Source: Saprospira grandis str. Lewin | GTDB lineage: Bacteria; Bacteroidota; Bacteroidia; Chitinophagales; Saprospiraceae | Length of the DNA: 64,000 nucleotides | Direction: 5' to 3' | NCBI RefSeq assembly: GCF_000250635.1 | Contig: NC_016940.1 | Span: forward strand, 1,352,995 to 1,416,994 | Shown here: one piece after another, positions 1,238 through 63,339 of the stretch | Layout: the number at the start of each line of letters is the position of its first letter | How positions within the stretch are numbered: the first letter of the stretch is position 1 | Position numbers and translations under genes: made by a program | Notes under the pieces: model-generated | Seen by the model: only the letters and a program-made list of their open reading frames with translations | Told to the model about the DNA's origin: nothing | Database searches by the model: none

Positions 1238-1395
1238 GAAGGCGGCGCAGCCGCCGCAGAGGAGCGCAGCGACTGGCTGAGGGATGGATAGCAGTGGCCG
1301 TTAGGCCAGACCCAGCCGCCAAAGGCGGCGCAGGGCCGAGCGAACAGCGAGCTGCGACATAGCCCGACCCGACCGAAGGGAGGGGCAGCCCCAAA
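1238..1395 (-). repeat. GC-rich interspersed element, subfamily A1 (…CAGCAGTGGCC…GCAGGGCCGAGCGAACAGCGAGCTGCGAC…GGGGCAGCCCCAAAA)
   Basis: Near-identical copies at 19292, 46914, 58355 and 63196. Reverse-complement copies at 8691 and 18422. Ends 38 nt upstream of the uvrC ATG. Confidence 0.85.
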
Positions 1396-1432
1396 ACAAA
1401 ATGCTAAATAAGCCGCTAATTTTTAGTCTATT

Positions 1433-3244
1433 ATGAATAAAGAGGATTATAAAAAGCTTTTGCCCAGTTTGCCTACAGATCCGGGTGTTTACCGATTTAT
1501 TGGGGCCGATGAGGAGATTTTGTACATCGGGAAAGCCAAAAATCTCAAGAAGCGGATTGCCTCCTATTTTACGAGCCGCAAGGATATGCGCCGTAAGACG
1601 AAGCGGATGGTCATGGCTGCAAAAAAGCTGAATTATACGCTGGTAGAGACGGAGCAGGATGCCCTTTTGCTAGAGGCTACGCTGATCAAAAAGCATCAGC
1701 CGCGCTATAATGTGGCCCTAAAACACAGCCGGCCCTACCCTTATATTTGCATCAAAAAAGAGCGTTTTCCGAGGATTATGATTAGCCGAAAAGTGCTGCA
1801 GGATGGCTCTAAATACTATGGTCCTTATGTATCTAAAAAGCGGATGTACACGCTCTTAGAGCTAATTAAAGAATTGTTTCAACTGCGCAGTTGTGCCCTC
1901 AACTTATCGGAGGAAAGCATTGCGGCGGGCAAGCATAAAGTTTGCCTTGAGTACCATATCAAAAACTGCAAAGCGCCCTGTGTGGGTTTTGAATCGGAGG
2001 CCAATTATATGGACAAAATTGAGCAGGTCCAAAATATGCTAAAAGGCCAGTTGGGAGCGGTGCGCAAATACCTCAAATCGGAAATGGGGCGCTATGCCGA
2101 GGAGCTCAATTTTGAGCAGGCGCAGCGGACAAAAGTGCAATTGGCTTTGCTTGAAAACTATCAGGGAAAATCGACGGTGGTCAATGCCAATATCCGTGAT
2201 TTGGATGTCTTTACCCTGGCCCAAGATGAAAAAGGCGAGATGGCTTATATTAACTACCTCAAGGTGGTAGAGGGGGCAATTATCAACACCTTTATGCTGG
2301 AGCTCAAGCAGAATTTAGATACCGAAGCGGAGGATTTGCTGCTTTTTGGGATTCGAGAACTGCGAGAGAAATTCCAAAGTATTGCGCCTGAAATTGTTGT
2401 CCCCTTCGAGATTCAGCTGCCTTGGTCCGAGATCCAACTGACGGTCCCCAAAATTGGCGATAAGAAAAAACTGCTGGAGCTTTCTGAGAAAAATGCCAAG
2501 TATTTCATCCTCCAAAAGCAAAAACAAGCCTTGGCCAAGGCCAACAAAATGGGCAAAGCCGAGCAGCTGTTGGAGATCATGAAAAAAGACCTACAAATTG
2601 ATGATTTGCCCATTCATATTGAGTGTTTTGACAACTCCAATTTGCAGGGGAACCAGCCCGTTTCGGCCATGGTGGTTTTTAAAAATGGGCGACCTGCCAA
2701 AAAAGAATATCGGCATTATCATGTCAAAACGGTAGTGGGTCCAGATGATTTTGCCTCTATGGAAGAGGTCGTTTTTCGCCGATACAAGCGCCTTTTGGAA
2801 GAGAAAAAACCCCTCCCCCAACTAATTGTGATTGATGGAGGCAAGGGACAGCTTTCTGCGGCCGTCAAAAGCCTCAAAGCCCTAGGCATTTTTGAGCGTT
2901 TGGCCATTATTGGCATTGCCAAGCGGCTAGAAGAAATCTTCTTTCCCAATGATCCCGTACCGCTTTTGCTCTCTAAAAAATCGCCCACGCTCAAGGTCAT
3001 TCAGCAAGCCAGAGACGAGGCCCACCGCTTCGCTATTAGCTTCCACAGAGATGTTCGTTCTAAGCAATTTTTGCAAAATGAGCTGCGGCAAATTCCGGGC
3101 GTTGGCGAAAAAACCCAGGAGAAACTGCTCCTGGCCCTTGGCTCTGTCAAAGAGGTCAAGAAGGCCAATTTAAGCCAATTAGAGGCCATTGTTGGAGCAA
3201 ATTTGGCCAAAAAAATCCGTACTTACTTCGATGCCAAAAGCTGA
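1433..3244 (+). CDS. uvrC: excinuclease ABC subunit C (UvrC)
   Basis: N-terminal GIY-YIG motif (GVYRF...ILYIGKAKNLKKRIASYF). 603 aa with a C-terminal HhH region. Confidence 0.9.
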   Translation: MNKEDYKKLLPSLPTDPGVYRFIGADEEILYIGKAKNLKKRIASYFTSRKDMRRKTKRMVMAAKKLNYTLVETEQDALLLEATLIKKHQPRYNVALKHSRPYPYICIKKERFPRIMISRKVLQDGSKYYGPYVSKKRMYTLLELIKELFQLRSCALNLSEESIAAGKHKVCLEYHIKNCKAPCVGFESEANYMDKIEQVQNMLKGQLGAVRKYLKSEMGRYAEELNFEQAQRTKVQLALLENYQGKSTVVNANIRDLDVFTLAQDEKGEMAYINYLKVVEGAIINTFMLELKQNLDTEAEDLLLFGIRELREKFQSIAPEIVVPFEIQLPWSEIQLTVPKIGDKKKLLELSEKNAKYFILQKQKQALAKANKMGKAEQLLEIMKKDLQIDDLPIHIECFDNSNLQGNQPVSAMVVFKNGRPAKKEYRHYHVKTVVGPDDFASMEEVVFRRYKRLLEEKKPLPQLIVIDGGKGQLSAAVKSLKALGIFERLAIIGIAKRLEEIFFPNDPVPLLLSKKSPTLKVIQQARDEAHRFAISFHRDVRSKQFLQNELRQIPGVGEKTQEKLLLALGSVKEVKKANLSQLEAIVGANLAKKIRTYFDAKS

Positions 3245-3723
3245 GTGCTGGCCGTCTGCATCAAAATGCCAAAACTGACAGCTACGTTCAGACAAGAGGT
3301 TTGTCCATGCCCTTGAATATAAATTTTCTGGTCGATCAAGGGCGCAATGTCTTCGGGCAAACCCGTTTTTTCATTGCCTACAATTAGCAAATCTTGGGCT
3401 TCAAACTGGACCTCATGCAGCATTTTGGCGCTAGGATCTACCCAAGTGGCCATTTTTCGGCCTGGATAATTGGCCAGAAAATCGGCTACATCTAAAATGG
3501 GAATCACTTCAATGTGCTCAATAGCGCCAGCTGTCCACACCCTAGCCATTTTCTCCATTTCGGCTCTGGCAAATTTGCTTTTGCCTGGCGGTAGCAACAA
3601 ATCATTTTGGTCGTAGATATAGATTTTCTTCAAGCCATAAAACTCTGCGGTCCGAATCATCGAGGATAAGTTCGGGCGATATTGAGGCGCATGTAATAAG
3701 GCGGCAAGTTGAGGTACTGACAT
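3223..3723 (-). CDS. SpoU/TrmH-family RNA 2'-O-methyltransferase (SPOUT)
   Basis: 166 aa with an LLIVGNEKTGLPEDI motif typical of the SpoU methylase C-terminal knot region. Confidence 0.6.
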   Translation of the reverse strand: MSVPQLAALLHAPQYRPNLSSMIRTAEFYGLKKIYIYDQNDLLLPPGKSKFARAEMEKMARVWTAGAIEHIEVIPILDVADFLANYPGRKMATWVDPSAKMLHEVQFEAQDLLIVGNEKTGLPEDIAPLIDQKIYIQGHGQTSCLNVAVSFGILMQTASTQLLASK

Positions 3724-3736
3724 ATTTATTTTTGTT

Positions 3737-4087
3737 TTTTTGGGGCCTCCCGCCTTTGGCGGGCGCTACGTTTCGGGGCTCGCAGGTCTGCTCGGCCCTG
3801 CGGCCTGACGGCCTTGGTCTGCGGCTAAGCCGCCCCCCTACACATCGCTAGGCCATTTGGCCTGCGGCTAGGGCTACACATCGGTTACTCCCTTTGGTCA
3901 TCGAACTGGCGCCCCTATAGGGGCTGGTTGTTGGGGCTCGCTGTTACTTGCTTCGCTGCGTCGGCTCCCCTTGGTCGGGTCGCTCGGCCCTGCGGCCTGA
4001 CGGCCTTGGTCTGCGGCTAAGCCGCCCCCCTGCACATCGGTTATTCCCTTTGGTCATCGAAGACGGCCTAAAGGCCTTGTTGTGGCC
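3737..4087 (+). repeat. composite GC-rich interspersed element, subfamily A2 (TTTTGGGGCCTCC…CGCTACGTTTCG…CTCGGCCCTGCGGCCTGACGGCCTTGGTCTGCGGCT…CATCGCTAGGCC), with an internal partial duplication
   Basis: A full A2 unit is followed by the GGTTACTCCCTTTGGTCATCGAACTG sub-unit and a second partial A2 unit. Same family as 42783, 50327 and 55598, and as reverse copies at 7279, 26218, 30637, 40456 and 51411. Confidence 0.8.
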
Positions 4088-4147
4088 AAAAAAGAGAGCC
4101 CCCAGCTAGCTGCGCTGGCTGGGGGCTCTTGTGTAATAGAGCAAAGT

Positions 4148-5062: not shown

Positions 5063-5188
5063 AGTAAAATTGATTTTTTTTCTGGGCACAAAAAAACAGA
5101 AAAAGGCCGAAAAAACGGCAGCCTAGCCCCCTTTTTTTGCCTAGCCCAAAAGAAACTCCATTTTTTTTATGCCTTTTTTTGCAAAAAG

Positions 5189-5260: not shown

Positions 5261-5334
5261 GCTTCCATAGCTCAGTTGGTTAGAGCATCTGACTGTTAAT
5301 CAGAGGGTCCCTGGTTCGAGCCCAGGTGGGAGCG
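5261..5334 (+). tRNA. tRNA-Asn (anticodon GTT)
   Basis: Cloverleaf folds by hand. The 7-bp acceptor stem is GCTTCCA/TGGGAGC. D-arm is AGCTCAGTTGGTTAGAGC, anticodon loop is CTGTTAA, T-arm is GGTTCGAGCCC. CCA is not encoded. Confidence 0.85.
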
Positions 5335-5359
5335 CTACTCATACACAACAATATATTTT

Positions 5360-5433
5360 GCTTCCATAGCTCAGTTGGTTAGAGCATCTGACTGTTAATC
5401 AGAGGGTCCCTGGTTCGAGCCCAGGTGGGAGCG
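5360..5433 (+). tRNA. tRNA-Asn (anticodon GTT), second identical tandem copy
   Basis: Identical 74-nt sequence 25 nt downstream of the first copy. Confidence 0.85.
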
Positions 5434-5438
5434 CAAAA

Positions 5439-6413: not shown

Positions 6414-7262
6414 TTATTCCTGCAAGCGCTTTAAGGCCTTAGGCCGCAAGCGCCACAACTTGGCCCCCGATAAAATTGAGCGCTCTGTGGTTAAATACAG
6501 CTGCGCATCTGGTCCAAAACAAAGGGCCTCTTGCTGCCGCAAAGGCAGGCGTATGCGCTGCTCTAATGGACCAAAACGGCCCCGCTCAAAAGAAAAGCGG
6601 TACAAATGCCGCATACTTAATAAATAAAGACTTTGCTCTCCTTCTCGATAAGCTGCGGCCGTAACCGATTGCCATAAACCACCCTTTTTTAGCTGTATGC
6701 TATCGCAGAGGCGGGCCGCCTGCGGCCCCGCCTCTTTGCCCAAGGCATAGAGATAATGCCAGCCATCATGCGGACGATGGCGGTTTTTGGTCACTATATA
6801 CAAGCTGTCGCCTTGGGCAAAAAGGGCCTCCGCATCAAAGTGGCGCTGCCAAGAGGCGGCGGGAAAAGCAATTTGCTCTGGATAATAAAAGCTAATTTTT
6901 TGAGGCTGAATTTCTTTTTGGTCCAAAGCCGATTTGGGAAAAAAATAGATGCAAAGATCTTGGCGCTGATTTAAATTATTGCCCATATCGGCCAAATAAA
7001 TAAATGCGCTATCAGTAGCAAGCGCCTCCCAATCTACATTAGGCGCTAAAATGTTGATGCTGCGCTGCAAATGCCCTTTTTGGTCCAATTCATAGAGCAA
7101 AGGAGCGTTTCCACCATCATTATGGCTATAAAAACTGCCGCTGCTGTCGATCCAAAGACCAGAACTTTCCGAAATAGGCAGGCGGCCCAAAGAACTCAAA
7201 CGACAAGCCGACAAACTTAGGCAAAGGAGCAAAATGCCAATACAACTTTTCATAGACAGCAA
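6414..7262 (-). CDS. lipoprotein, possibly SdiA-regulated/phytase-like beta-propeller family
   Basis: Signal peptide with an LSAC lipobox if started at Met4 (7253). ESSGL...SHNDGG motif. Family assignment is tentative. Confidence 0.5.
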   Translation of the reverse strand: MLSMKSCIGILLLCLSLSACRLSSLGRLPISESSGLWIDSSGSFYSHNDGGNAPLLYELDQKGHLQRSINILAPNVDWEALATDSAFIYLADMGNNLNQRQDLCIYFFPKSALDQKEIQPQKISFYYPEQIAFPAASWQRHFDAEALFAQGDSLYIVTKNRHRPHDGWHYLYALGKEAGPQAARLCDSIQLKKGGLWQSVTAAAYREGEQSLYLLSMRHLYRFSFERGRFGPLEQRIRLPLRQQEALCFGPDAQLYLTTERSILSGAKLWRLRPKALKRLQE

Positions 7263-7278
7263 TTTTTGCGGTGGACAG

Positions 7279-7413
7279 GCGGCGAAGCCGCCGCAGGCCT
7301 AGCGATGCGGAGGGGTGGCCGAAGGCCAGACCAAGCCGCTCTAAGCGGCGAAGGGCCGAGCAGACCTGCGAGCCCCATAGCGTAGCGCCTGCCGAAGGCA
7401 GGAGGCCCCAAAT
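7279..7413 (-). repeat. GC-rich interspersed element, subfamily A2 (reverse orientation, ends GGAGGCCCCAAA)
   Basis: CCTAGCGATGCGG…GGCCAGACCAAGCCG…GGGCCGAGCAGACCTGCGAGC…CGTAGCGCCTGCC…GGAGGCCCC matches the reverse complement of the 42783 copy. Confidence 0.8.
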
Positions 7414-7450
7414 AAAAAGGCATCTAGCCGAAGCCAAATGCCTTTATCTC

Positions 7451-8593: not shown

Positions 8594-8690
8594 AGCTTTT
8601 TGTTTCCAGATTCTCTCTTTTAACAGCCCTTTGGGCCTATGGTTGCTGCAAAGATACAACTTTTTTCATCTGTTATTGAAAGTAGGCATA

Positions 8691-8848
8691 TTTTGGGGCT
8701 TCCCCTGCGGCCTTCGGCCTTGGGTCGGGCTCTGTCGCAGCTCGCAGGCTTGCTCGGCCCTGCAGCGCTTCGCGCTTTGGTCTGGCCCTTCGGGCCACTG
8801 CTATCCATCCCTAAGCCAAGTCGCTTCGCTCCTTTCTACTGCTTGGAG
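8691..8848 (+). repeat. GC-rich interspersed element, subfamily A1 (TTTTGGGGCTTCCCC… orientation)
   Basis: Reverse complement of the 1238 type. The CCCCAAAA end faces the start of the radical-SAM gene. Confidence 0.85.
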
Positions 8849-12465: not shown

Positions 12466-12570
12466 CAGTCTCTTTTTTTGTAAAAGCCTAGCGAATTTAA
12501 GAAAAAAAGCGCTTTGTGCCAATTTATACAAATTTGATTACAGATGTAGGGATTCTTTTCACCTTTTTAT

Positions 12571-12730
12571 TTTTTTGGGGCTGCCCCGCCTTGCAGGCGG
12601 GTCGGGCTGTCTCAGGGCTCGCAGGCCTGCTCGGCCCTTCGCTTTTTTCGCTACGCTCAAAAAGCTCGGTCTGGCCCTGCGGGCCACCCTTGCCCATCCC
12701 TCAGCCATTAAAGGCTGGCTGCGCCAGCCC
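12571..12730 (+). repeat. GC-rich interspersed element, degenerate A1 copy
   Basis: TTTTTTGGGGCTGCCCCGCC…GGGCTCGCAGGCCTGCTCGGCCC…CCATCCCTCAGCC. Confidence 0.75.
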
Positions 12731-14164: not shown

Positions 14165-14385
14165 GTTAAACTATTATTTTAATTGATTAATGGTGTCAGT
14201 GATTTATAGACAATAACTAAAGTCAAATCTTGACTCTAGGCAGTCTAGTCCAAAGACAAAATTAAATTTTTTATGCTAATTTTATAATTCCCCTCTCAGA
14301 ACTTTCTTCCGATTTGCTTATTTCTCCCCTGCCATTTGGGCCCAAAGCGCCCTTTCTCCCCCCCTTTTGGCCCAGCAGTATTGGC

Positions 14386-14517
14386 CCAGCGCTGCGAAGG
14401 GGTGGCCGCAAGGCCAGACCCAGGCGCTGAAAGCGCCGCAGGGCCGAGCAGACCTGCGAGCCCCGAAGCATAGCGGCGGCCGACCTAGGCGAAGCCTAGC
14501 CGGCCGCGGGCCCCAAA
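14386..14517 (-). repeat. GC-rich interspersed element, A2-like
   Basis: GGCCAGACCCAGGCG…GCAGGGCCGAGCAGACCTGCGAGCCCC…GGGCCCCAAAA. Ends 12 nt before the S8 peptidase ATG. Confidence 0.8.
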
Positions 14518-14528
14518 ATCATCTAATT

Positions 14529-16725: not shown

Positions 16726-16760
16726 AAAAGGGGCAGAACTTAGGTTTTGCCCCTTTTTTT
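16726..16760 (+). terminator. rho-independent terminator of the S8 peptidase gene
   Basis: AAAGGGGCA…TGCCCCTTT hairpin followed by T7. Confidence 0.7.
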
Positions 16761-16882
16761 AGGCCCTAAAATCAATAAACCCCTAAATTTCGCCGCTAAG
16801 CGAGCCTAGCTAATCTCTAGTAGGGTCAGTCCAGAAAAAAAAGACAGGACCTTAGTGATACGCCCAGAGGAGTTTGTAAACT

Positions 16883-17169
16883 GCAAATTAGCTCTGGGCA
16901 TCGTTCAGAGCTGTTTTGCAAATGCAAATTAGCTCCGGGCATCGTTCAGAGGCGTTTTGCAAATGCAAATTAGCTCCGGGCATCGTTCAGAGCTGTTTTG
17001 CAAATGCAAATTAGCTCCGGGCATCGTTCAGAGCTGTTTTGCAAATGCAAATTAGCTCTGGGCATCGTTCAGAGGCGTTTTGCAAATGCAAATTAGCTCT
17101 GGGCATCGTTCAGAGGCGTTTTGCAAATGCAAATTAGCTCCGGGCATCGTTCAGAGCTGTTTTGCAAAT
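16883..17169. repeat. tandem array, 41-bp unit x7 (GCAAATTAGCTCyGGGCATCGTTCAGAGsyGTTTTGCAAAT)
   Basis: Seven head-to-tail units with only two variable positions. The unit contains the TTTGCAAA palindrome and a GCAAAT direct dyad. Related 26-27 nt sequences flank it at 16866 and 17196. Confidence 0.9.
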
Positions 17170-17243
17170 GAAAATAAAGGCTAGCGCCAAGCCAGAGGCA
17201 TTTGTAAACTGCAGATAGGTCCCAAACTCTTGTTTAGGGGCAT

Positions 17244-18375: not shown

Positions 18376-18421
18376 TACAAATGGTTTACTGAAAAAATAG
18401 GTATGTATTTATCTAGGAGGG

Positions 18422-18585
18422 TTTTGGGGCTGCCCCTGCGGCCTTCGGCCTTGGGTCGGGCTGTGTCGCAGCTCGCAGGTCTGCTCGGCCCTGCGGCGGC
18501 TTTGCCGCCTGGGTCTGGCCTGCGGCCACTGCTATCCATCCCTCAGCCGCGTCGCTACGCTCCTTTGCGGCCCTTCGGGCCTGTA
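18422..18585 (+). repeat. GC-rich interspersed element, subfamily A1 (full-length reference copy)
   Basis: TTTTGGGGCTGCCCCTGCGGCCTTCGGCC…GCTCGCAGGTCTGCTCGGCCCTGCGGCGGCTTTGCCGCC…GGCCTGCGGCCACTGCTATCCATCCCTCAGCC…. It contains three GGCC-TTCG-GGCC-type mini-hairpins. Confidence 0.85.
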
Positions 18586-19291: not shown

Positions 19292-19456
19292 GCAGGGCCG
19301 AAGGCCCGCAAAGGAGCGTAGCGACGCGGCTGAGGGATGGACAGCAGTGGCCGAAGGCCAGACCCAGGCAGCTTTGCTGCCGCAGGGCCGAGCGAACAGC
19401 GAGCTGCGACACAGCCCGACCCAAGGCCGCAGGCCGCAGGGGCAGCCCCAACAAAA
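19292..19456 (-). repeat. GC-rich interspersed element, subfamily A1
   Basis: …GGATGGACAGCAGTGGCCGAAGGCCAGACCC…GCAGGGCCGAGCGAACAGCGAGCTGCGACACAGCCCGACCC…GGGGCAGCCCCAA. Ends 10 nt before the Smr-protein ATG. Confidence 0.85.
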
Positions 19457-21399: not shown

Positions 21400-21450
21400 G
21401 TTGGTTTGTTCAGGATATTGTATATCTAAATAAGTTTAGGGAAGTAGAAT

Positions 21451-21627
21451 TTAGCCAATAGTCGCCTAGGGACAAGCCCCTAGGCTAATAAATGGAGTCA
21501 GCCCTAAAGGGCCTCAAGGTAAGATACTTTTTGACTTACTTGTTCTTGCGAAGAAAACAGCGTCCCTAAAGGCCCTCGCAGAGGGCTGTCTACAAAAGCT
21601 AGCCTAGGGGCTTGTCCCTAGGCAGCT
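21451..21627. mobile_element. MITE-like element, family B, with ~30-bp terminal inverted repeats (GCCAATAGTCGCCTAGGGACAAGCCCCTAGGCTA)
   Basis: The left end at 21451 and the reverse complement of the right end at 21597-21627 share CCTAGGGACAAGCCCCTAGGCTA. A matching solo end is at 30107. No ORF. Confidence 0.65.
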
Positions 21628-21654
21628 ACAACTTTTAAACAGGTCTTTTTTTGT

Positions 21655-24905: not shown

Positions 24906-25066
24906 TTTTTTTTGGGGCTGCCCCTTCGCTTCGCTGCGGGTCGGGCCATTGCGCAGCTCGCAGGTATGCTCGGCCCTGCACAGGCTGCGCCTGTTTGGTC
25001 TGCCGCCTGCGGCGGCCCTGCTACAGCCCCTCAGCCGATAGGCTGGGGCTTCGCCCCAGCCCCATA
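24906..25066 (+). repeat. GC-rich interspersed element, A1-like with divergent 3' half
   Basis: TTTTTTGGGGCTGCCCCTTCGC…CAGCTCGCAGGTATGCTCGGCCCTGC…CCCCTCAGCC. Confidence 0.75.
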
Positions 25067-25149
25067 AGGTATATGGCTGCGCCATATATTTAGTAAAAAA
25101 TAATTTGGCCCAGCCCAAAATAAGCCCCCAATCAAATTTATTTGCCAAC

Positions 25150-26217
25150 ATGAAATGGTTCCAACGTATCCGAAAAGCCTTTGAGGCCCTTCTAGAAGAA
25201 GATATCGAAAACGATTATGTAGATGATGGCCGCCCTTTCCGAATCTTGAGCCAAGAACGCTCCTTTTTACCCAATTCGGCCAAAGGAGACTTTAGACTCT
25301 ACCGCCTCCACCAAAGCTTTTGCGCCTGCTGGTACGAACTACTGGTCGTCCGCTCCGATGATGGCAACCTCCGTTATGAATTGCCCGGCTGGGGCCGTGC
25401 CGTAGCCATTAGCCCCGATAAAAGCAAGCTCTTAGCCGCCCGAAATAAACAGCTGGCCATATTTAATGCCGCTACCGGCCAAATGATTGGCCAAGAAAAA
25501 ACCCTAGATGCCTTTATCGATTTCCTGCTCTGGCTGCCCAATGAACAAATTGCCGCCACCGATGGAGAAAAAATCTATCTGCTCGACCAAGAGCTAGAAC
25601 TTAAAGCCATTATTCATGACCCCATAGATAAAGGAGGATTTATTGCGGGGATGCAGCTGGGCCAACATCCCCATGAAGTCATTATCCTTGATTTTAATCA
25701 TCAACAACTGAGAAAAATAGACCTGCGATCGGGGGCCATACTCAAAGAATCAACGGCCCAATATGCCGAACAACTGTTTCGACAAGATGACCGCCTCTGG
25801 ACCGCCGTAGTCAATGGGACCCAACTCCAAGAAATTCGCTTTTATAGCCTAGAAAAATTAGAAGAAAAATATGCCCTGCCCTTTAGAGGCAAAAAGGGCA
25901 TCCGCTTCGCCAACCAGCCCCCTTCCGATATTAGTTATCATCATTGGACCTCTTTGCCAGTTCTTTCTCCAGAAGAACAATTCCTGCTGGTGAATGATAA
26001 TGCCGGCCTGCTCTGGCTGCTCGATGCCCATACCGGAGACCACCGCCGGACCTTCTCGCCAAAATTGTTGCCCTATGTCTATGCCTGCCTCTGGCTCAAT
26101 GAAGAAGAATTTGTGGTCCTTTTAGAAGATGGATTTGTGGCCAAGATGAATATCCGATCTAAATCCCTTATGTTTAAACAACAAGATTTTGACCCTCAGC
26201 AAAATCGCTTCTTTTAG
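25150..26217 (+). CDS. hypothetical protein (possible beta-propeller-like)
   Basis: 356-aa ORF from the ATG at 25150. No recognised motifs. Confidence 0.5.
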   Translation: MKWFQRIRKAFEALLEEDIENDYVDDGRPFRILSQERSFLPNSAKGDFRLYRLHQSFCACWYELLVVRSDDGNLRYELPGWGRAVAISPDKSKLLAARNKQLAIFNAATGQMIGQEKTLDAFIDFLLWLPNEQIAATDGEKIYLLDQELELKAIIHDPIDKGGFIAGMQLGQHPHEVIILDFNHQQLRKIDLRSGAILKESTAQYAEQLFRQDDRLWTAVVNGTQLQEIRFYSLEKLEEKYALPFRGKKGIRFANQPPSDISYHHWTSLPVLSPEEQFLLVNDNAGLLWLLDAHTGDHRRTFSPKLLPYVYACLWLNEEEFVVLLEDGFVAKMNIRSKSLMFKQQDFDPQQNRFF

Positions 26218-26354
26218 AGGCGCGAAGCGCCTGGCCTAGCGATGTGCAGCAGTGCGGCGAAGCCGCAGACCAAGGCCGTCAGGCCGCAGGGCCGAGCGAA
26301 CAGCGAGCTGCGAAACGTAGCGCAGCAAGGCGAAGCCGCAGCTGAGGCCCCAAA
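26218..26354 (-). repeat. GC-rich interspersed element, subfamily A2
   Basis: GGCCTAGCGATGTGCAGCAGTGCGGCGAAGCCGCAGACCAAGGCCGTCAGGCCGCAGGGCCGAGCGAACAGCGAGCTGCGAAACGTAGCG…GAGGCCCCAAAA. Ends 40 nt before the helicase ATG. Confidence 0.85.
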
Positions 26355-26394
26355 ACAGACAGACAAAAAAACCTAACCCAACAATTATATTTTT

Positions 26395-29778: not shown

Positions 29779-29833
29779 TTTTCTCCTTTCTGATCTTAAT
29801 TTATCCCGCTAGTCATCATGACTAGGGGGATAT

Positions 29834-29987
29834 TTTTTTGGGGCCTGCCGCCTTTGGCGGCCGGGCCCTTGCAGGGCTCGCAGGTCTGCTCGGCCCTGCG
29901 TCGCCTTCGGCTCCTTGGTCTGGCCTGCGGCCACCCTTTCAGGCCCCTAGGCCGTTTGGCCTTCGGCCATGGGGCGGCGAAGCCGCC
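29834..29987 (+). repeat. GC-rich interspersed element, hybrid subtype (TTTTGGGGCCTGCCGCC… with an A1-like GGTCTGGCCTGCGGCCACC 3' part)
   Basis: Shares its architecture with the copy at 62963. Confidence 0.8.
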
Positions 29988-30106
29988 TGTTTAAATAGTC
30001 TCATGGGCTGTTTAGAGCCATGGGCTGAAGCCCTTGTTTGCTGAGGGGGCGGGACTGCTCAGGATTTTGTGTATCCGAATAAAATTTGGGCTTTTAGCTT
30101 GTTAGG

Positions 30107-30183: not shown

Positions 30184-30252
30184 AGATTCAGCTCTGCTAT
30201 AACGACTGGTCAAGGACCTGTATATCAACCTTTGGGGCTAAGCAGTTTACTT

Positions 30253-30563
30253 CCAGACCGAACTAGTTCACCGCCAGACCGAACTAGTTTACCTCCAGAC
30301 CGAACTAGTTCACTTCCAGACCGAACTAGTTCACCGCCAGACCGAACTAGTTTACCTCCAGACCGAACTAGTTCACTTCCAGACCGAACTAGTTCACTTC
30401 CAGACCGAACTAGTTCACCGCCAGACCGAACTAGTTCACCGCCAGACCGAACTAGTTTACCTCCAGACCGAACTAGTTTACCTCCAGACCGAACTAGTTT
30501 ACTTCCAGACCTAACTAGTTCACTTCCAGACATAACTAGTTCACTTCCAGACATAACTTTTGC
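30253..30563. repeat. tandem array, 21-bp unit x~15 (CCAGACCGAACTAGTTCACyk), each unit carrying the 10-bp perfect palindrome GAACTAGTTC
   Basis: Three unit variants differ only in the last 5 nt. The last 3 units degenerate (CTAACTAG, ATAACTAG). The array is open in several frames, giving a spurious PDRTSS-repeat ORF. Confidence 0.9.
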
Positions 30564-30636
30564 CTTTTTTCATTTTGTTGCGTTTTTTTTAGTTTTTAAC
30601 AAATCTCTAACAATTCAGTATAAAAAAAGGGGGATG

Positions 30637-30756
30637 AGCGGCCTAGCGATGCGGAAGGGGGCGGCGAAGCCGCAGACCAAGGCCGTCAGGCCGCAGGGCC
30701 GAGCAGCCTTGCGAGCCCTGCAGCGTAGCGCCTGCCGCAGGCAGGAGGCCCCAAAA
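30637..30756 (-). repeat. GC-rich interspersed element, subfamily A2
   Basis: GGCCTAGCGATGCGGAAGGGGGCGGCGAAGCCGCAGACCAAGGCCGTCAGGCCGCAGGGCCGAGCAGCCTTGCGAGCCC…GGAGGCCCCAAAA. Confidence 0.85.
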
Positions 30757-30813
30757 CAAAAAAGGCCAGCCCCAGAGGAGCTGACCTTCGTCAGTAATTA
30801 GTTAGCTAAGTCA

Positions 30814-40431: not shown

Positions 40432-40455
40432 GATTATTGTTTGCCTTAGTTTGTT

Positions 40456-41010
40456 TGGCGGTCTGGGCGGGCCGAAGGCCCGCCGGCCTAGCGATGTGCA
40501 GCAGTGCGGCGCAGCCGCAGACCCAGGCCGTCAGGCCGCAGGGCCGAGCAGACCTGCGAGCTGCGGAACGTAGCGCCGACGAGCGAAGGGAGGCGGAGGC
40601 CCCAAAACAGCAGCGAGCTGCGACAACCAGCCTCGAAGAGGCGCCAGTTCGACGACCAAAGGGAGTAAACGTAGCGCCGACGACCGAAGGGAGGCGGAGG
40701 CCCCAAAATAGCAGCGAGCTGCGACAACCAGCCTCGAAGAGGCGCCAGTTCGACGACCAAAGGGAGTAAACGTAGCGCCGACGAGCGAAGCGAGGCGGAG
40801 GCCCCAAAATAGCAGCGAGCTGCGACAACCAGCCTCGAAGAGGCGCCAGTTCGACGACCAAAGGGAGTAAACGTAGCGCCGACGAGCGAAGCGAGGCGGA
40901 GGCCCCAAAATAGCAGCGAGCTGCGACAACCAGCCTCGAAGAGGCGCCAGTTCGACGACCAAAGGGAGTAAACGTAGCGCCGACGAGCGAAGGGAGGCGG
41001 AGGCCCCAAA
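40456..41010 (-). repeat. GC-rich interspersed element (A2) expanded by four tandem copies of an internal ~101-bp sub-unit
   Basis: The A2 head (GGCCTAGCGATGTGCAGCAGTGCGGCGCAGCCGCAGACCCAGGCCGTCAGGCCGCAGGGCCGAGCAGACCTGCGAGCTGCGGAACGTAGCGCCG) is followed by four copies of GAGGCGGAGGCCCCAAAAyAGCAGCGAGCTGCGACAACCAGCCTCGAAGAGGCGCCAGTTCGACGACCAAAGGGAGTAAACGTAGCGCCGACGAsCGAAG. The period of 101 bp was counted at 40591, 40692 and 40793. Confidence 0.85.
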
Positions 41011-41084
41011 TCTCCTACAGCATTTTATAATAAACGCTTCTGCCATAAAAAAAAGGGCCAAAAGGCCCTAAAGTTCTCTTAAAA

Positions 41085-42694: not shown

Positions 42695-42782
42695 GATTTG
42701 GGAAGTCTGTTTATTATCTCTGTAGGTTAAAACCTCATAAAGCTAATCCTTTGAATATACAGGATAGTGAATAGTTGGGGAT

Positions 42783-42917
42783 TTTGGGGCCTCCTGCCTG
42801 CGGCAGGCGCTACGTTTCGCAGCTCGCTATTCGCTCGGCCCTGCGGCCTGACGGCCTTGGTCTGCGGCTGTGCCGCACTGCTGCACATCGCTAGGCCAGG
42901 CTGGCCGAAGGCCAGCC
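42783..42917 (+). repeat. GC-rich interspersed element, subfamily A2 (compact reference copy)
   Basis: TTTTGGGGCCTCCTGCCTGCGGCAGGCGCTACGTTTCGCAGCTCGCTATTCGCTCGGCCCTGCGGCCTGACGGCCTTGGTCTGCGGCTGTGCCGCACTGCTGCACATCGCTAGGCCAGGCTGGCCGAAGGCCAGCC. Confidence 0.85.
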
Positions 42918-43047
42918 TTCTAGATCCAAACAGATTTGGCCCTTTCTACAGACTTTTGTAATTTTTTAGGCCCTTAGGGCTAACCATCAGCCCCTTTGGG
43001 GTATTACTCATTGAGCCCACAAGCTTACCCCCAGAAACCTCTTTTTT

Positions 43048-44579: not shown

Positions 44580-45127
44580 CCCTATTCGATAGAGATCAAA
44601 TACCCCATCAAGGGCTTGATGCCCTATTCGACAGAGATCAAATACCCCATCAAAGGCTTGATGCCCTATTCGACAGAGATCAAATACCCCATCAAAGGCT
44701 TGATGCCCTATTCGACAGAGATCAAATACCCCATCAAAGGCTTGATGCCCTAGTTGACAGAGATCAAATACCCCATCAAAGGCTTGATGCCCTATTCGAT
44801 AGAGATCAAACACCCCATAAAAGGCTTGATGCCCTATTCGATAGAGATCAAATACCTCATAAAAGGCTTGATGCCCTATTCGACAGAGATCAAATACCCC
44901 ATCAAAGGCTTGATGCCCTATTCGACAGAGATCAAATACCCCATCAAAGGCTTGATGCCCTAGTTGACAGAGATCAAACACCCCATCAAAGGCTTGATGC
45001 CCTATTCGACAGAGATCAAATACCCCATCAAAGGCTTGATGCCCTAGTTGACAGAGATCAAACACCCCATCAAAGGCTTGATGCCCTATTCGACAGAGAT
45101 CAAATACCCCATCAAAGGCTTGATGCC
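44580..45127. repeat. tandem array, 42-bp unit x13 (CCCTATTCGACAGAGATCAAATACCCCATCAAAGGCTTGATG)
   Basis: 13 head-to-tail units with sparse variants (ATACC/ACACC, TTCGAC/GTTGAC, CATCAA/CATAAA). The unit contains the CATCAA-AGGC-TTGATG inverted repeat and a GATC site. It is open in several frames, giving a spurious DALFDRDQIPHQRL-repeat ORF. Confidence 0.9.
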
Positions 45128-45138
45128 CTAATTGGTCC

Positions 45139-46913: not shown

Positions 46914-47077
46914 GACAGGTGGCGAAGCCGCCGCAAAGGAGCGCAGCGACGCGGCTGAGGGATGGGCAGCAGTGGCCCGCGGGGCCAGACCCAGCCGCCA
47001 AAGGCGGCGCAGGGCCGAGCGAATAGCGAGCTGCGATACAGCCCGACCCGCCCGCAGGGCGGGGCAGCCCCAAAAAA
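46914..47077 (-). repeat. GC-rich interspersed element, subfamily A1
   Basis: …GGGATGGGCAGCAGTGGCCCGCGGGGCCAGACCCAGCCGCC…GCAGGGCCGAGCGAATAGCGAGCTGCGATACAGCCCGACCCG…GGGGCAGCCCCAAAAAAA. Lies between the TPR gene stop and the OMP gene start. Confidence 0.85.
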
Positions 47078-47085
47078 AGAAAGAT

Positions 47086-50235: not shown

Positions 50236-50326
50236 GAAGTTCTATTTAATTTTAAAGGAGTCTTTCCTAGAGAATCATTCTAATAAGTTCTTAGCTCAAG
50301 ATACAGTTTTTTAACTGTTTTATGAT

Positions 50327-50482
50327 TTTGGGGCCTCCGCTGCGGCTTCGCCTTGCGGCGCTACGTTTCGCAGCTCGCTGATCGCTCGGCCCTGCGCCAG
50401 CAAGCTGGCTAGGTCTGGCCTACGGCCACTGCTGCACATCGCTAGGCCAGATGGCCTACGGCCAAGGCGGCTTTGCCGCCTT
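50327..50482 (+). repeat. GC-rich interspersed element, A2/hybrid
   Basis: TTTTGGGGCCTCCGCTGCGGC…CGCTACGTTTCGCAGCTCGCTGATCGCTCGGCCCTGCG…GGTCTGGCCTACGGCCACTGCTGCACATCGCTAGGCC…. Confidence 0.8.
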
Positions 50483-51363: not shown

Positions 51364-51410
51364 AACAAATATAGATTCTAGCGTGGTGGGCAAAATAAGG
51401 GCTGGGCTGG

Positions 51411-51536
51411 GGCGCCAATGGCCTAGCGATGCGAAAGGGTGGCCGTCAGGCCAGACCGAGGCGCTTTGCGCCGAAGGGCCGAGCAGAGCTGCGAGCCCTG
51501 TAGCGTAGCGCCTGCCGCAGGCAGGAGGCCCCAAAA
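51411..51536 (-). repeat. GC-rich interspersed element, subfamily A2
   Basis: GGCCTAGCGATGCGAAAGGGTGGCCGTCAGGCCAGACCGAGGCG…GGGCCGAGCAGAGCTGCGAGCCC…CGTAGCGCCTGCCGCAGGCAGGAGGCCCCAAAA. Confidence 0.85.
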
Positions 51537-51550
51537 ATAACAGCAGTAAG

Positions 51551-55545: not shown

Positions 55546-55597
55546 GATTATTTTCTTTTAGTCGCCGCAAAAATAGCCTTTTTCTTTGGAATAATAA

Positions 55598-55840
55598 TTT
55601 TTTGGGGCCTCCGCTGCGGCCTGCGGCCTTGCGGCGGTTACTCCCTTTGGTCGTCGAACTGCGCCCTAAAGGGCTTGTTGTCGTTGCGCAGCTCGCTGCT
55701 ATTTTGGGGCCTCCGCCTCCCTTCGGTCGTCGGCGCTACGTTGCGCAGCTCGCTGTTCGCTCGGCCCTGCGGCCTGACGGCCTAGGTCTGCGGCTGCGCC
55801 GCACTGCTGCACATCGCTAGGCCGAATGGCCTTCGGCCAT
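55598..55840 (+). repeat. GC-rich interspersed element (A2) containing ~1.5 copies of the 101-bp internal sub-unit
   Basis: TTTTTTGGGGCCTCCGCTGCGGCC…GGTTACTCCCTTTGGTCGTCGAACTGCGCC…GCTGCTATTTTGGGGCCTCCGCCTCCCTTCGGTCGTCGGCGCTACGTTGCGCAGCTCGCTG…CATCGCTAGGCCGAATGGCCTTCGGCC. Confidence 0.85.
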
Positions 55841-55918
55841 TTTTGGATAAAAATTTCAAACTTATTTTGCGTTTATAAATTAAAGTTATTACCTTTATGT
55901 AAACACAAAAACAAAGCA

Positions 55919-58171
55919 ATGAAAGCATTAGCCATTTTTCTCTTATCCAGTTTATTTTTTGGCCACCTAAATCTATTACAGATGAACCAGCGAGAACTTT
56001 TTTTGGCAAAACAGCAGCAGTATCAAGAAGATACAGCCCTTTATGAAGAAACCTTGGCCCAATATCAAGAACTCTATTCACTTTATCAGGAACTTCCGGC
56101 AGAGGACCCTGATCGCCCGAGCCTAAAGGCGGCTTTGCTCAAGACCAAAGAGGGTCTAAAGGCCTTTAAGCCACAGCTCAAAATGGATAAGGCCAATTTG
56201 GAGCAACTATTTTTGGCCCTTAAGGAAGAAGAAATTCCCAAAACTGATTTTTTATTAGAGTTTGCTCAGAATGCTCTAGACCTAGCAGATAAAGCAAGAA
56301 ATCTGAAGGGTAATATAAAAAATGACCAGTGGGCAAAAACTAGTACTTTAAATCATTTATACATTAAATTCAAGGAAGGTAAAAAGCTCAAAGTTTGCCG
56401 TCTGATTGCGGCAGATATTAAGGCTTTAGTAGAGCAGGCAGACAACAAGCCACCTAGTATATTCTTAGAAGAGTTGGCCCAAATTTTTGAGCGTTATGAT
56501 GCAGTAGAAAAGATTAAGAAGTATAGAGCTAAATCCCGCTTTATTGAGTCCACCATTGCGCCTTATGTCCTTTCCCCTAACCAACTAGAAAGCATTTTGG
56601 ACCAAGCCCTGGCCAAGGATGACTTTTTGACGGAAGAGGAGTTGGAGGAGAAGGAAAAAGAATTGGAGGAGACGAGAAAGGAGAAAGAAAAAGAGAAAGA
56701 AATGGCTATAGAGAAATGGACTGCAAAAGTTGAAAACTGGAAAACCCAAAGCATAAAAACTATTTATGAGCTGATGGTCTTAGATACGCTAGAAAAATAC
56801 CGCGATCTAAAAATTAACGCTATCTATGTATTAGAAGAAATAAAAGAATGGGATAAAGTTGATGACCCCAAAGTCGTTCAGCTAATTTTTGATTACAGCC
56901 GTAAACTCCTTCCGAAAGGACAACTAAGCAATGAAGATGTATCCAGTAATATGATTAAGGTCATCGATAAAACAGCTACCTTTTTAATTGCGCATCCTGA
57001 AGCATGGTATGAAAATCACAATAAAGTAGTGCTACCCAACCTTCACAAAATTCTAGCTCTTCTTGCAAGAATAGATGGTGCAAGAGCAAAATTTAACTGC
57101 TATGATATTTACTTAGATTGGGTAAGGCAGTCTAATGTTTTTGCAACTGACAATAGCGTCTATAAGCTAGATTGTTTAACTGAAAAATTAACCGCCTATT
57201 TCAAAAAAGAAGCCGCAATGGCTGCTTTTGCTCCAGCCTTGGAGGCAGAGCTTAAACAACTCAAAGCAAGCCTTAAGGGCAGAAATATAATTTTAGCCCG
57301 TCATCTTATACAGCCTTATAAAAAAGCTATAGGCAATACTTTTTTCCATAAAGAAAAAAATGGGCTAATCAGCTATATAAAAGCAAATAGGGCTAATGCA
57401 ACATTGGCTGAAGACTTAGCACTAATTCTCGCTCATAATTTTCAGGAGGAAAACATAAAAGAGGCCATAAAAAGCTGTCAACAAGCAGTAGTGCAATGGG
57501 TCCCTAGCCATACCGAAGATAGCTTAACTCAAAATATTCTACTCTCTAATGATAGTACCCTCTCGCTTACTATCAAATTTCAGTTGAATAAAAACAACGG
57601 GCAGTATGCGGCAAAAGCCACAGCTCTAAGCATGAATGTTAGTCAAAAGAAGGGGCCTGACTATGAAATCAAAGCCAGTTTTAATGCTCCGCTAATTGTG
57701 GAAGCTGATGGTACTGCTTATCATGAATTTTCTGCAGAGATTAGCTACAAAATAGCTGCGGATCAAAGAACTGTAAATATAGGTGCAGAGGCTGGAGGGG
57801 AATTCGGGAATAGTAAAACAGAAACTGATAGTTGGAACTATAGTCGAACAGGTGGTTTAAGTGAAATTTTAGAATATACGCACACTAGAGAAGATGGTGG
57901 AGAAACTGCCGACGAAACCTTTAGTTCAGGAAATGTTAGTATAAATGCCTCTGTAGCTAATACAAAGACAGATGGAATGCAAGAAGGTTTTTTCAAACTT
58001 GTTAAGGGGAGCTTACAAACGGTAAAGAAAGGAAATAGCGTAGAAGTACAATGGCTACTGCTTGATCCTATTGATAACTTTGTGTATCCAAATGGAGGAA
58101 TATCGGTTAAACAGGTCTTATCCAATAATGCTGATCAATTGATTAAAGAAATTCCACTCCATAAAAAATAA
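55919..58171 (+). CDS. hypothetical secreted protein (750 aa), AT-rich gene with coiled-coil EKEKE region and a Ser/Thr/Gly-rich C-terminal half
   Basis: Start at the ATG at 55919 (MKALAIFLLSSLFFGHLNLLQ signal peptide). The gene is markedly more A/T-rich than its neighbours. Confidence 0.6.
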   Translation: MKALAIFLLSSLFFGHLNLLQMNQRELFLAKQQQYQEDTALYEETLAQYQELYSLYQELPAEDPDRPSLKAALLKTKEGLKAFKPQLKMDKANLEQLFLALKEEEIPKTDFLLEFAQNALDLADKARNLKGNIKNDQWAKTSTLNHLYIKFKEGKKLKVCRLIAADIKALVEQADNKPPSIFLEELAQIFERYDAVEKIKKYRAKSRFIESTIAPYVLSPNQLESILDQALAKDDFLTEEELEEKEKELEETRKEKEKEKEMAIEKWTAKVENWKTQSIKTIYELMVLDTLEKYRDLKINAIYVLEEIKEWDKVDDPKVVQLIFDYSRKLLPKGQLSNEDVSSNMIKVIDKTATFLIAHPEAWYENHNKVVLPNLHKILALLARIDGARAKFNCYDIYLDWVRQSNVFATDNSVYKLDCLTEKLTAYFKKEAAMAAFAPALEAELKQLKASLKGRNIILARHLIQPYKKAIGNTFFHKEKNGLISYIKANRANATLAEDLALILAHNFQEENIKEAIKSCQQAVVQWVPSHTEDSLTQNILLSNDSTLSLTIKFQLNKNNGQYAAKATALSMNVSQKKGPDYEIKASFNAPLIVEADGTAYHEFSAEISYKIAADQRTVNIGAEAGGEFGNSKTETDSWNYSRTGGLSEILEYTHTREDGGETADETFSSGNVSINASVANTKTDGMQEGFFKLVKGSLQTVKKGNSVEVQWLLLDPIDNFVYPNGGISVKQVLSNNADQLIKEIPLHKK

Positions 58172-58220: not shown

Positions 58221-58227
58221 AATAAAA

Positions 58228-58343
58228 GATTGCGAAGCAATACCATCTGGCTGTAGGTTTCAACCTAAGTTCAATTCATGAGGGTTTTAACCCTCATTCA
58301 TAGTTCATTGCGAAGCAATACCATCTGGCTGTAGGTTTCAACC
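58228..58343. other. hairpin cluster: 39-nt direct repeat (ATTGCGAAGCAATACCATCTGGCTGTAGGTTTCAACCTA) x2 flanking an ATGAGGGTT-TT-AACCCTCAT hairpin
   Basis: Each repeat holds the ATTGC-GAA-GCAAT and CTGTAGGTT-TC-AACCTACAG stem-loops. Five hairpins lie within 116 nt. Confidence 0.6.
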
Positions 58344-58354
58344 TACAGTTAAAA

Positions 58355-58496
58355 GGGCCGAAGGCCCGAAGACTGAGGGGCTGTAGCAGGGCCGCCGCAG
58401 GCGGCAGACCGAGGCGCTTTGCGCCGAAGGGCCGAGCAGACCTGCGAGCTGCGAAATGGCCCGACCCAGCCAAAGGCTGGGGCAGCCCCAAAAAAA
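58355..58496 (-). repeat. GC-rich interspersed element, subfamily A1
   Basis: GGCCGAAGGCCC…CAGGGCCGCCGCAGGCGGCAGACCGAGGCG…GGGCCGAGCAGACCTGCGAGCTGCGAAATGGCCCGACCC…GGGGCAGCCCCAAAAAAA. Confidence 0.85.
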
Positions 58497-62472: not shown

Positions 62473-62485
62473 AATAGCATCAATC

Positions 62486-62905: not shown

Positions 62906-62934
62906 GTTTTAGTCTAGCCTACTTTCTACTAGGA

Positions 62935-62969
62935 CAGCAGCTACTGATGCAGTAGTTGCTGTTTTTTTT
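62935..62969 (+). terminator. rho-independent terminator of the lipoprotein pair
   Basis: CAGCAGCTACTG-ATG-CAGTAGTTGCTG, a 12-bp stem, followed by T8. Confidence 0.8.
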
Positions 62970-63116
62970 GGGGCCTGCCGCCTGCGGCGGCCGGGCCCTT
63001 GCAGGGCTCGCAGCTCTGCTCGGCCCTTCAGCCCTTCGGGCTTCGGTCTGGCCTGCGGCCACCCTTTCAGGCCCCTAGGCCAGTCGCTGCGCTCCTTTGC
63101 GGCGGCTCCGCCGCCT
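62963..63116 (+). repeat. GC-rich interspersed element, hybrid subtype
   Basis: TTTTTTTTGGGGCCTGCCGCCTGCGGCGGCCGGGCCCTTGCAGGGCTCGCAGCTCTGCTCGGCCC…GGTCTGGCCTGCGGCCACCCTTTCAGGCCCCTAGGCC…. Same architecture as 29834. Confidence 0.8.
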
Positions 63117-63136
63117 GTCTGACGCAATTGGACCAA

Positions 63137-63173
63137 TAAAAAAAGCGCTGCTAAACGAAGTTTAGTCAGCGCT
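63137..63173 (-). terminator. probable terminator of the OmpA-family gene, separated from its stop by a repeat copy
   Basis: GCGCTGCTAAAC-GAAG-TTTAGTCAGCGC hairpin with A8 on the + strand, giving T8 on the minus strand. Confidence 0.5.
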
Positions 63174-63195
63174 TGGGCGCTGGCTGGCCAGCGCT

Positions 63196-63339
63196 AGGGC
63201 CGCAAGGCCCTCATCGGCTTAGGGATGGATAGCAGTGGCCCGAAGGGCCAGACCTAGCGGGCGCAGCCCGCGCAGGGCCGAGCAGACCTGCGAGCTGCGA
63301 CACAGCCCGACCCGACCAAAGGGAGGGGAAGCCCCAAAA
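63196..63339 (-). repeat. GC-rich interspersed element, subfamily A1
   Basis: …AGGGATGGATAGCAGTGGCCCGAAGGGCCAGACC…GCAGGGCCGAGCAGACCTGCGAGCTGCGACACAGCCCGACCCGACC…GGGGAAGCCCCAAAA. Confidence 0.85.

Follow-up and report, generated by a model that had tools for sequence, protein, structure and literature searches.

A dense intergenic repeat family of Saprospira grandis with a covarying multi-helix fold and alternating orientation

An intergenic repeat family in Saprospira

The 64 000-nt stretch of the Saprospira grandis str. Lewin chromosome analysed here (NC_016940.1, positions 1,352,995 to 1,416,994; hereafter the window) holds 21 full-length copies of a GC-rich repeat, or about one per 3 kb, in the gaps between its genes. 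A first-pass annotation made from the sequence alone had listed 21 positions for this element, and a profile made from the oriented window copies (nhmmer) finds a full-length copy at each of them, with E-values from 1e-24 to 1e-35. Motif counts in the window gave 12 matches to a 27-mer core at up to three mismatches against 0 expected, and 24 matches to TTTTGGGGCY against 1.2 expected. Throughout, copies are oriented with TTTTGGGGC at their 5' end, termed the head. The same profile also detects one partial copy and four to five truncated units in a 101-bp tandem array (Table 1). Together with these partial and tandem derivatives, the copies take up 3877 nt (6.1% of the window) at a GC content of 66.2%, compared with 45.8% for the remaining window.

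Beyond the window, a search of genome collections with the conserved-block pattern returned at least 120 eight-kb stretches (0.96 Mb), nearly all from S. grandis DSM 2844, for which called genes exist, and a few from metagenome-assembled genomes (MAGs) of uncultured Saprospiraceae. Metagenome matches come mostly from one Saprospira-like population, with a few more distant contigs. All counts from these stretches and contigs are counts among the matches listed and not totals. The 120 stretches contain at least about 280 further full copies, so the family is not limited to the window, whose identity to DSM 2844 is about 94%. Extrapolating the window density to a genome of 4.3-4.4 Mb would give about 1,400 copies, a figure that is an estimate and not a count.

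The copies match neither a known RNA family nor the ends of the one multicopy insertion sequence (IS) in the sample. Rfam matched only two tRNA-Asn genes in the window and nothing above noise over the copies, at both gathering and permissive E-value thresholds, which rules out a known RNA family. The sole multicopy IS in the sample, an IS5-like element of 930 bp, has unrelated inverted ends (GAGCTTGTTTAAA); its copies are 100% identical (L007 3625-4554, also L060, L062 and L092), and the one in L007 adjoins an element. A viral contig of IMG/VR (UViG_3300017971_000039, L121 4646-4697) has only a core-like GCTCGC..GCTCGGCCCT..GGTCTG within other GC-rich hairpins and no full element. Full-text literature searches, with two older genome papers outside their coverage, returned no published description of these repeats. 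The elements are a non-coding, intergenic and hairpin-rich repeat family specific to Saprospira and the Saprospiraceae, an undescribed and unusually elaborate relative of the repetitive extragenic palindromic (REP) sequences, bacterial interspersed mosaic elements (BIMEs) and BOX elements. This upholds the likeness to REP, BIME and ERIC repeats seen at first pass, to which the present analysis adds a multi-helix fold with covariation, the alternation of neighbours and a rapid exchange of modules between copies.

A conserved multi-helix fold

Each element consists of a run of 3-9 T and a core that extends from GGGGC to a final GCC (median 121 nt, range 107-148), and every head reads T(3-9)GGGGC. 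From 5' to 3', the core comprises the 5' strand of helix P1 (GGCxy), hairpin V1, block B1, the 4-nt 5' strand of helix P2, the invariant CTCGC-(5-6 nt)-GCTCGGCCCT, hairpin V2, the invariant GGTCTG, hairpin V3, the P2 3' strand, 7 nt, C(C/G)CT and the P1 3' strand (y'x'GCC). P1 is a 5-bp closing helix that pairs GGCxy with y'x'GCC, and P2 is a 4-bp inner helix around V2 and V3; V2 is stacked on GGCCC/GGGTC, and a short helix, P1b, also takes part when the single-stranded core folds shut. The blocks GCTCGC, GCTCGGCCCT, GGTCTG and CxCT at the junctions are invariant. RNAalifold, run on a plain alignment, independently gave P2, a short P1b and GGCC/GGTC around V2. The DSM 2844 ortholog of copy 2 stops exactly at the P1 3' strand, which makes the closed P1 unit the minimal element. 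The first-pass annotation saw no terminal inverted repeats; the ends do share a short complementarity of 5 bp, which covaries. Its UUCG tetraloops fall away, since the loops are mostly 3 nt long (TTC, TGC, TTT).

Optional modules include a 17-nt V4, a V5 hairpin in a TGCGG..CTGTAGGACC frame and a 44-nt "B" insert within B1, and with the 101-bp tandem derivatives they make the family a mosaic. The A1, A2 and hybrid types distinguished earlier are real, and behind them lies a free reassortment of modules.

Helix and hairpin statistics were taken from 220 copies parsed by their anchors, and covariation was formally counted in 150 distinct copies against 500 shuffles. The variable pairs of P1 are CT/AG in 104 copies, TG/CA in 74, CC/GG in 27 and TT/AA in 8, with seven exceptions. 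P2 occurs in at least nine Watson-Crick variants, including GCAG/CTGC, GGGG/CCCC, AGGG/CCCT, GTGG/CCAC, GCCG/CGGC and GCGG/CCGC, and is fully paired at its fixed offset in 84% of copies compared with 22% when partners are shuffled. Among the distinct copies, 96.8% of P1 and P2 cells are paired compared with 79.2% in shuffles, and double-change cells number 267 compared with 91. The covariation score is 0.498 against 0.18, a value reached by none of the 500 shuffles, and it is far lower with slid partners. Relatives from MAGs and metagenomes add new compensated variants of both P1 (GCGCC/GGCGC, GCGCT/AGCGC, GCGTG/CACGC, CTGTG/CACAG) and P2 (ACGG/CCGT, ATGG/CCAT, GGAG/CTCC, ATAG/CTAT, GTAG/CTAC), and even the distant ones keep the invariant unpaired blocks. 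Among the hairpins, V2 has 146 different sequences in the 220 copies, with 1120 Watson-Crick pairs, no G.U and three A.C, and V3 has 786 pairs, all Watson-Crick. The fold is under selection, its stems being hypervariable yet essentially perfectly paired.

Both strands fold about equally well. Pairing that is almost purely Watson-Crick argues against selection on one RNA strand; it is what a constraint would leave if it acted on the complementarity of the DNA, or on RNA transcribed from both strands. The rare wobble exceptions do not reveal the folding strand, because the helices contradict each other: in P2 the excess is of A.C on the forward strand, equivalent to G.U on the reverse (17 vs 1), and in P1 and V1 it is opposite, with G.T at 4 vs 0 and 16 vs 1, respectively.

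Alternating orientation of neighbouring copies

Along the window, successive copies lie in the strand order -+-++-+-+-+--+-+-+-+-. In the DSM 2844 and MAG stretches, 142 neighbours are opposite and 21 the same, giving 160 opposite neighbours out of 183 when combined with the window, and the independent metagenome population has 98 out of 113. The two kinds of opposite pair are spaced differently. Tail-to-tail pairs (101) have a median gap of 1.2 kb, with 27 gaps below 300 nt, whereas head-to-head pairs (59) have a median gap of 3.3 kb and only two gaps below 1 kb. The share of neighbours in the same orientation rises with distance, from about 2% below 1 kb to 7% at 1-2 kb, 15% at 2-4 kb and 32% at 4-8 kb, a trend that selection against deletion-prone close direct repeats would produce.

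The genes bracketed by pairs are ordinary and mutually unrelated (their products include a LutB-like Fe-S protein, a GNAT and a TsaB-like protein), which rejects a composite transposon with a transposase between tail-to-tail copies. Pair partners have likenesses of 0.705 and 0.722 compared with 0.709 for random copies, and the rare direct neighbours have a higher value of 0.766. As partners are no more alike than random copies, the pairs are not duplicated or moved as units, and doublets are neither local inverted duplications nor units like REPINs, the paired REPs of other bacteria. The alternation of neighbours is a new observation that is only partly explained.

Position relative to genes

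The copies are intergenic, as first claimed, including all seven orthologous copies in DSM 2844 as judged from its called genes. Their orientation relative to flanking genes is close to random: among 261 copies, the flanking-gene arrangements relative to the element are (+,+) in 72, (-,-) in 78, convergent in 59 and divergent in 52, and the 20% of copies that lie between divergent genes are as frequent as chance predicts. In about half of the copies, according to the first-pass annotation, the CCCCAAAA end points at a gene whose start codon lies downstream; this is accurate (130 of 261), but it equals the chance expectation, and with so random an arrangement a specific link to start codons, 5' leaders or promoters is not supported. 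Heads are close to genes: the median distance is 24-30 nt where they adjoin a stop codon and about 85 nt where they adjoin a start codon. Tails are farther from genes, and other repeat modules and terminator-like hairpins gather there. Some copies fill the entire gap between co-directional genes, such as copy 9, at 23 and 30 nt from the adjacent open reading frames (ORFs), and copy 15, at 8 nt.

Two simple regulatory readings of the T-run fail. By inspection, most T-runs have the wrong length for a Bacteroidetes -7 promoter (TAnnTTTG). The element is not an intrinsic terminator either: on one strand the stems come after the T-run, and on the other it is an A-run that comes after the stems.

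Evolution between strains

About 35 kb of orthologous DNA could be compared between the window and DSM 2844, with twelve element sites, and at every one DSM 2844 has a copy in the matching location that is oriented the same way. The elements diverge faster than their flanks, with 75-92% identity against 88-99%. The differences are replacements of whole parts, with V2 and V3 changing together or the full block from P2a to P2b exchanged and both P2 strands switching at once. The 44-nt and 17-nt modules are gained or lost between strains, and P1 and P2 types reassort freely. All 21 window copies keep every invariant block exactly, and no decayed relics were found in the window even at the most permissive search setting. 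The simplest account is that copies often convert one another, with the conserved blocks as breakpoints; this would both repair and reshuffle copies, and some selection would act alongside it to keep the helices complementary.

Searches with joined flanks and of paralogous DNA found no clean empty site, only collapsed derivatives, which may be internal deletions or footprints. In both, the head sits nearly directly on tail sequence: TTTTTTGGGGCC|TGTAGGATGG in L005 (~7833) and TTTTTGGGGCCTGCGGTGGCCC in L033 (~7966).

Synteny with DSM 2844 breaks at 55598-55860, where L083 matches only window 55600-57982, reversed, the rest of L083 being unrelated; this suggests rearrangement at elements. In metagenome contig Ga0209187_1001702 (L161 1456-4755), two copies in the same orientation flank an AbiEi/AbiEii toxin-antitoxin cassette and are identical over their 3' two-thirds, an arrangement that would result if the cassette had inserted at an element or had duplicated one.

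Catalogue of the window

All copies, their derivatives and other features of the window are collected in Table 1. In the tandem array next to copy 13, each unit fuses the head, V1 and B1 to a B module of 44 nt and gives partial nhmmer matches to model positions 3-45.

Table 1. Repeat copies, derivatives and other features in the window, with their state in DSM 2844 and related sequences.
Feature	Position	Strand	Profile match and remarks	DSM 2844 and relatives
Copy 1, full	1248..1399	-	nhmmer E 7e-32; head (T-run + GGGGC) at 1399; P1 type TG/CA	Present; V1, V2 loop, V3 and block B2 differ
Copy 2, full	3735..3886	+	nhmmer E 1e-33	Minimal element, stops exactly at P1 3' strand (..CTAGGCC|AAAAAAG); other V2 and V3
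Extra modules on copy 2 tail	3887..4083	+	B-type modules and partial copy 3978-4039 (nhmmer E 6e-10)	Absent (BLAST gap, window 3855 to 4084, vs L050)
tRNA-Asn(GTT) genes	5261-5434		Two, in tandem	
Copy 3, full	7260..7416	-	nhmmer E 1e-30	
Copy 4, full	8689..8848	+	nhmmer E 1e-32; P1 type TT/AA	Identity 92% vs flanks 96-98%
Copy 5, full	12570..12715	+	nhmmer E 2e-28; long A/T-armed V2 hairpin	V2 arm order differs
Copy 6, full	14362..14521	-	nhmmer E 8e-30; P1 type CC/GG	44-nt B-module insertion
Tandem array	16873-17175		41-bp unit x 7.4; within 16739-17235	Whole ~500-nt block missing
Copy 7, full	18421..18574	+	nhmmer E 9e-33; carries 17-nt V4 module	V4 missing in DSM 2844 and metagenome contig L123; central block replaced in L123
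Copy 8, full	19300..19456	-	nhmmer E 2e-30; head TTGTTGGGGC	P2 GCAG/CTGC -> AGGG/CCCT, V1 and V2 changing along
Insertion that looks like a different, genuinely MITE-like element (MITE, miniature inverted-repeat transposable element)	21409-21651		~243 nt; 14-nt direct repeat (GGTCTTTTTTTGTT) at flanks; inverted arms CCTAGGGACAAGCCCCTAGG / CCTAGGGGCTTGTCCCTAGG	Absent
Copy 9, full	24907..25073	+	nhmmer E 2e-28	V2 replaced
Copy 10, full	26210..26357	-	nhmmer E 2e-30	Entire P2a-to-P2b block replaced
Copy 11, full	29832..29993	+	nhmmer E 3e-29	Almost identical
Tandem array	30244-30552		21 bp x 14.7	
Copy 12, full	30602..30759	-	nhmmer E 6e-29	
Tandem array	32465-33274		264 bp x 3; inside 2386-aa ORF 30814-37974	
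Copy 13, full	40451..40609	-	nhmmer E 7e-33	
Tandem array abutting copy 13	40567..41014	-	4.4 truncated 101-bp units; TRF period 101, 98% matches	
Copy 14, full	42781..42936	+	nhmmer E 5e-31	
Tandem array	44580-45130		42 bp x 13	
Copy 15, full	46917..47078	-	nhmmer E 1e-30	
Copy 16, full	50323..50467	+	nhmmer E 2e-32	
Copy 17, full	51394..51539	-	nhmmer E 6e-31	
Truncated B-type unit, one, immediately 5' of copy 18	55597..55699	+	Weak nhmmer match, model positions 2-40	
Copy 18, full	55700..55860	+	nhmmer E 4e-35	Synteny ends here
Second repeat family	58228-58349		GATTGCGAAGCAATACCATCTGGCTGTAGGTTTCAACCTACAG, twice; joined to copy 19 tail	Also after many DSM 2844 tails
Copy 19, full	58342..58496	-	nhmmer E 2e-29; one G.T pair in P1	
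Copy 20, full	62963..63112	+	nhmmer E 5e-24; left partner of tail-to-tail doublet; 95-nt gap to copy 21 contains terminator-like hairpin	
Copy 21, full	63207..63340	-	nhmmer E 2e-32; right doublet partner, subtype unlike copy 20	

Relation to known repeat systems

The closest likeness is to REPs and BIMEs, with which the Saprospira family shares high copy number, GC-rich extragenic hairpins, module mosaics, alternating units and, probably, passive co-transcription. REPs in BIMEs alternate in orientation (PMC2817692), and tail-to-tail REP dimers are common (PMC3733652). As in BIMEs, the units are mosaic and alternate (160/183), and tail-to-tail and head-to-head spacings are distinct. However, the Saprospira unit, about 121 nt long, forms a five-helix junction whose unpaired blocks are invariant rather than being a single palindrome of 20-40 nt, it has no GTAG/CGTC tag, its alternation spans genes at kilobase scale with a density of about 6% of the DNA, and its copies lie between divergent genes as often as chance predicts. 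Like REPINs, which go with REP-associated tyrosine transposases (RAYTs), these are non-autonomous structured repeats that persist by vertical descent and have neither long inverted ends nor target duplications; unlike the near-identical arms of REPINs, the partners in Saprospira doublets are of unrelated subtypes, their 68-70% identity being that of random pairs. Membership of the REP/REPIN class itself is rejected, since a single-palindrome unit, the tag and near-identical arms are all lacking.

BOX elements of Streptococcus pneumoniae (boxA-boxB(n)-boxC) are likewise modular and intergenic; their internal module may be missing or repeated in tandem, and their predicted folds are stable. They number about 100-130 copies compared with the estimated 1,400 in Saprospira, and there is no known sequence relationship. 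To our knowledge, hypervariable stems that stay perfectly paired have not been reported for BOX. ERIC/IRU and Correia (NEMIS) elements are also intergenic repeats of about 100-160 bp that enter transcripts and form long stems, but each of them is a long, simple, imperfect palindrome bounded by terminal inverted repeats, to which Correia elements add a TA duplication, whereas the Saprospira ends pair over five bases only and the fold is a multi-branch junction.

Several classes of mobile DNA can be set aside. No target-site duplication was found in the element flanks, terminal pairing is limited to five bases, and in copies with tail modules the 3' partner does not even lie at the end; with neither inverted ends of about 10 bp or more nor a target-site duplication, the elements are not MITEs dependent on a DDE transposase. 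An integron attC array is rejected because orientation alternates and copies are scattered among housekeeping genes (uvrC, tsaB-like, radical-SAM).

Origin and maintenance

The reading that we favour, at about even odds, is that of a REP/BIME-like, non-autonomous repeat that is structured at the DNA level and kept uniform by gene conversion. The pairing constraint would act on DNA, either on folded single strands or on both strands equally, rather than on one RNA. The family may originally have spread as folded single-stranded DNA by means of a trans-acting HUH/Y1 (RAYT-like) enzyme, and would now be held together mainly by gene conversion. Selection against nearby, deletion-prone direct repeats may contribute to the alternating orientation, and co-transcribed hairpins would probably act in a REP-like manner as passive barriers or stabilisers in mRNA. 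In Bacteroidetes, RAYTs (TnpA-Y1) of subclass 2.6 have flanking "atypical secondary structures" with copies elsewhere in the genome (PMC6006769).

Several observations weigh against this reading. About 1.7 Mb of Saprospira sequence (about one-quarter to one-third of a genome), searched by tblastn with approximate IS200 TnpA and E. coli RAYT seeds and by scans for HUH..Y motifs, yielded no Y1/RAYT-like ORF; the best match was a weak one to a dihydrofolate reductase. Heads carry neither a GTAG nor a CGTC tag, and neither a recent insertion nor an empty site occurs among the compared sites. If insertion were strand-directed, as in IS200/IS605, a single orientation would dominate, whereas the window has 10 copies on the plus and 11 on the minus strand, alternating within 64 kb, which rejects a derivation from IS200/IS605. 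Selection against direct repeats does not account for the strong short-range asymmetry between tail-to-tail and head-to-head pairs. Single-sequence folding barely beats shuffled sequence (z from -0.2 to -2.9), so thermodynamic stability is weak evidence of a fold and the case for structure stands on covariation. Finally, the loops are strand-asymmetric: the head strand has TTC, TGC and TTT where the opposite strand has GAA, GCA and AAA, and a constraint purely on the double strand leaves this unaccounted for. In DNA, mini-hairpins with C-GNA-G loops are very stable, which would fit an element that folds as single-stranded DNA.

An unlikely alternative is that the elements are cis-acting RNA structures, co-transcribed with neighbouring genes, that stabilise mRNA 3' ends or serve as processing sites or decoupling elements in the manner of REPs in E. 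coli operons. Such an RNA would have to work in either orientation, which would explain Watson-Crick-only pairing. Copies such as 9 and 15, which fill gaps between co-directional genes, must be transcribed, heads lie only a few tens of nucleotides past stop codons, and all copies are intact with their structure conserved. Yet there is no strand preference relative to genes, one-fifth of copies have divergent genes on their two sides, the G.U pairs that are common in RNA families are nearly lacking, a simple exonuclease barrier would not need invariant unpaired blocks, and no Rfam family matches.

Rather improbable is a role as oriented architectural or recombination sites used by the host, at which a putative sequence- and structure-specific protein would bind the invariant blocks and opposite pairs would act together to form loops, to bring about local inversion or gene conversion, or to dock integrating DNA. 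The alternation and the distinct tail-to-tail and head-to-head medians in three data sets point this way, as do the invariant single-stranded blocks kept into distant relatives, the conservation of sites between strains, the synteny break at a copy and the toxin-antitoxin cassette between two direct copies. On the other hand, no candidate protein was found, pair partners resemble each other no more than random copies do, the bracketed genes are ordinary and unrelated, and about 1,400 sites would be unusually many for such a system.

A retroelement resembling short interspersed elements, in which the ...GCCCC-A(n) strand would be a structured RNA reverse-transcribed into T-rich sites with the A-run as its tail, is very improbable: the head T-run (an A-run on the other strand) does vary from 3 to 9, the P2 mismatches are mostly G.U on the reverse strand (17 vs 1) and the structure is conserved, but P1 and V1 have the opposite wobble bias (4 vs 0 and 16 vs 1), slippage alone makes homopolymers vary in length, and neither a reverse transcriptase close to the copies nor target-site duplications nor recent insertions were seen.

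Implications

The invariant junctions of the conserved multi-branch fold hint at a protein that reads them specifically. The boldest proposal, and in our view quite an improbable one, is that the elements are more than selfish DNA that the host tolerates, being oriented, structure-specific sites read by a dedicated protein in opposite pairs, with about 700 tail-to-tail pairs punctuating the Saprospira chromosome. If this were true, the paired sites would be, for example, loop or domain anchors or the substrates of a machinery for directed copy-to-copy conversion or recombination. We know of no bacterial precedent for paired-site punctuation at such density.

In practical terms, the copies break assemblies, as many metagenome contigs end in them, and create spurious ORFs. 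At about 6% of the window DNA, the family is among the densest bacterial repeat families, and its combination of a conserved multi-branch fold, stems that are nearly unique to each copy yet perfectly paired, and alternation across genes is rare. It offers a natural system for concerted evolution, for ectopic gene conversion and for the way in which recombination hazards shape repeat layout in a compact genome.

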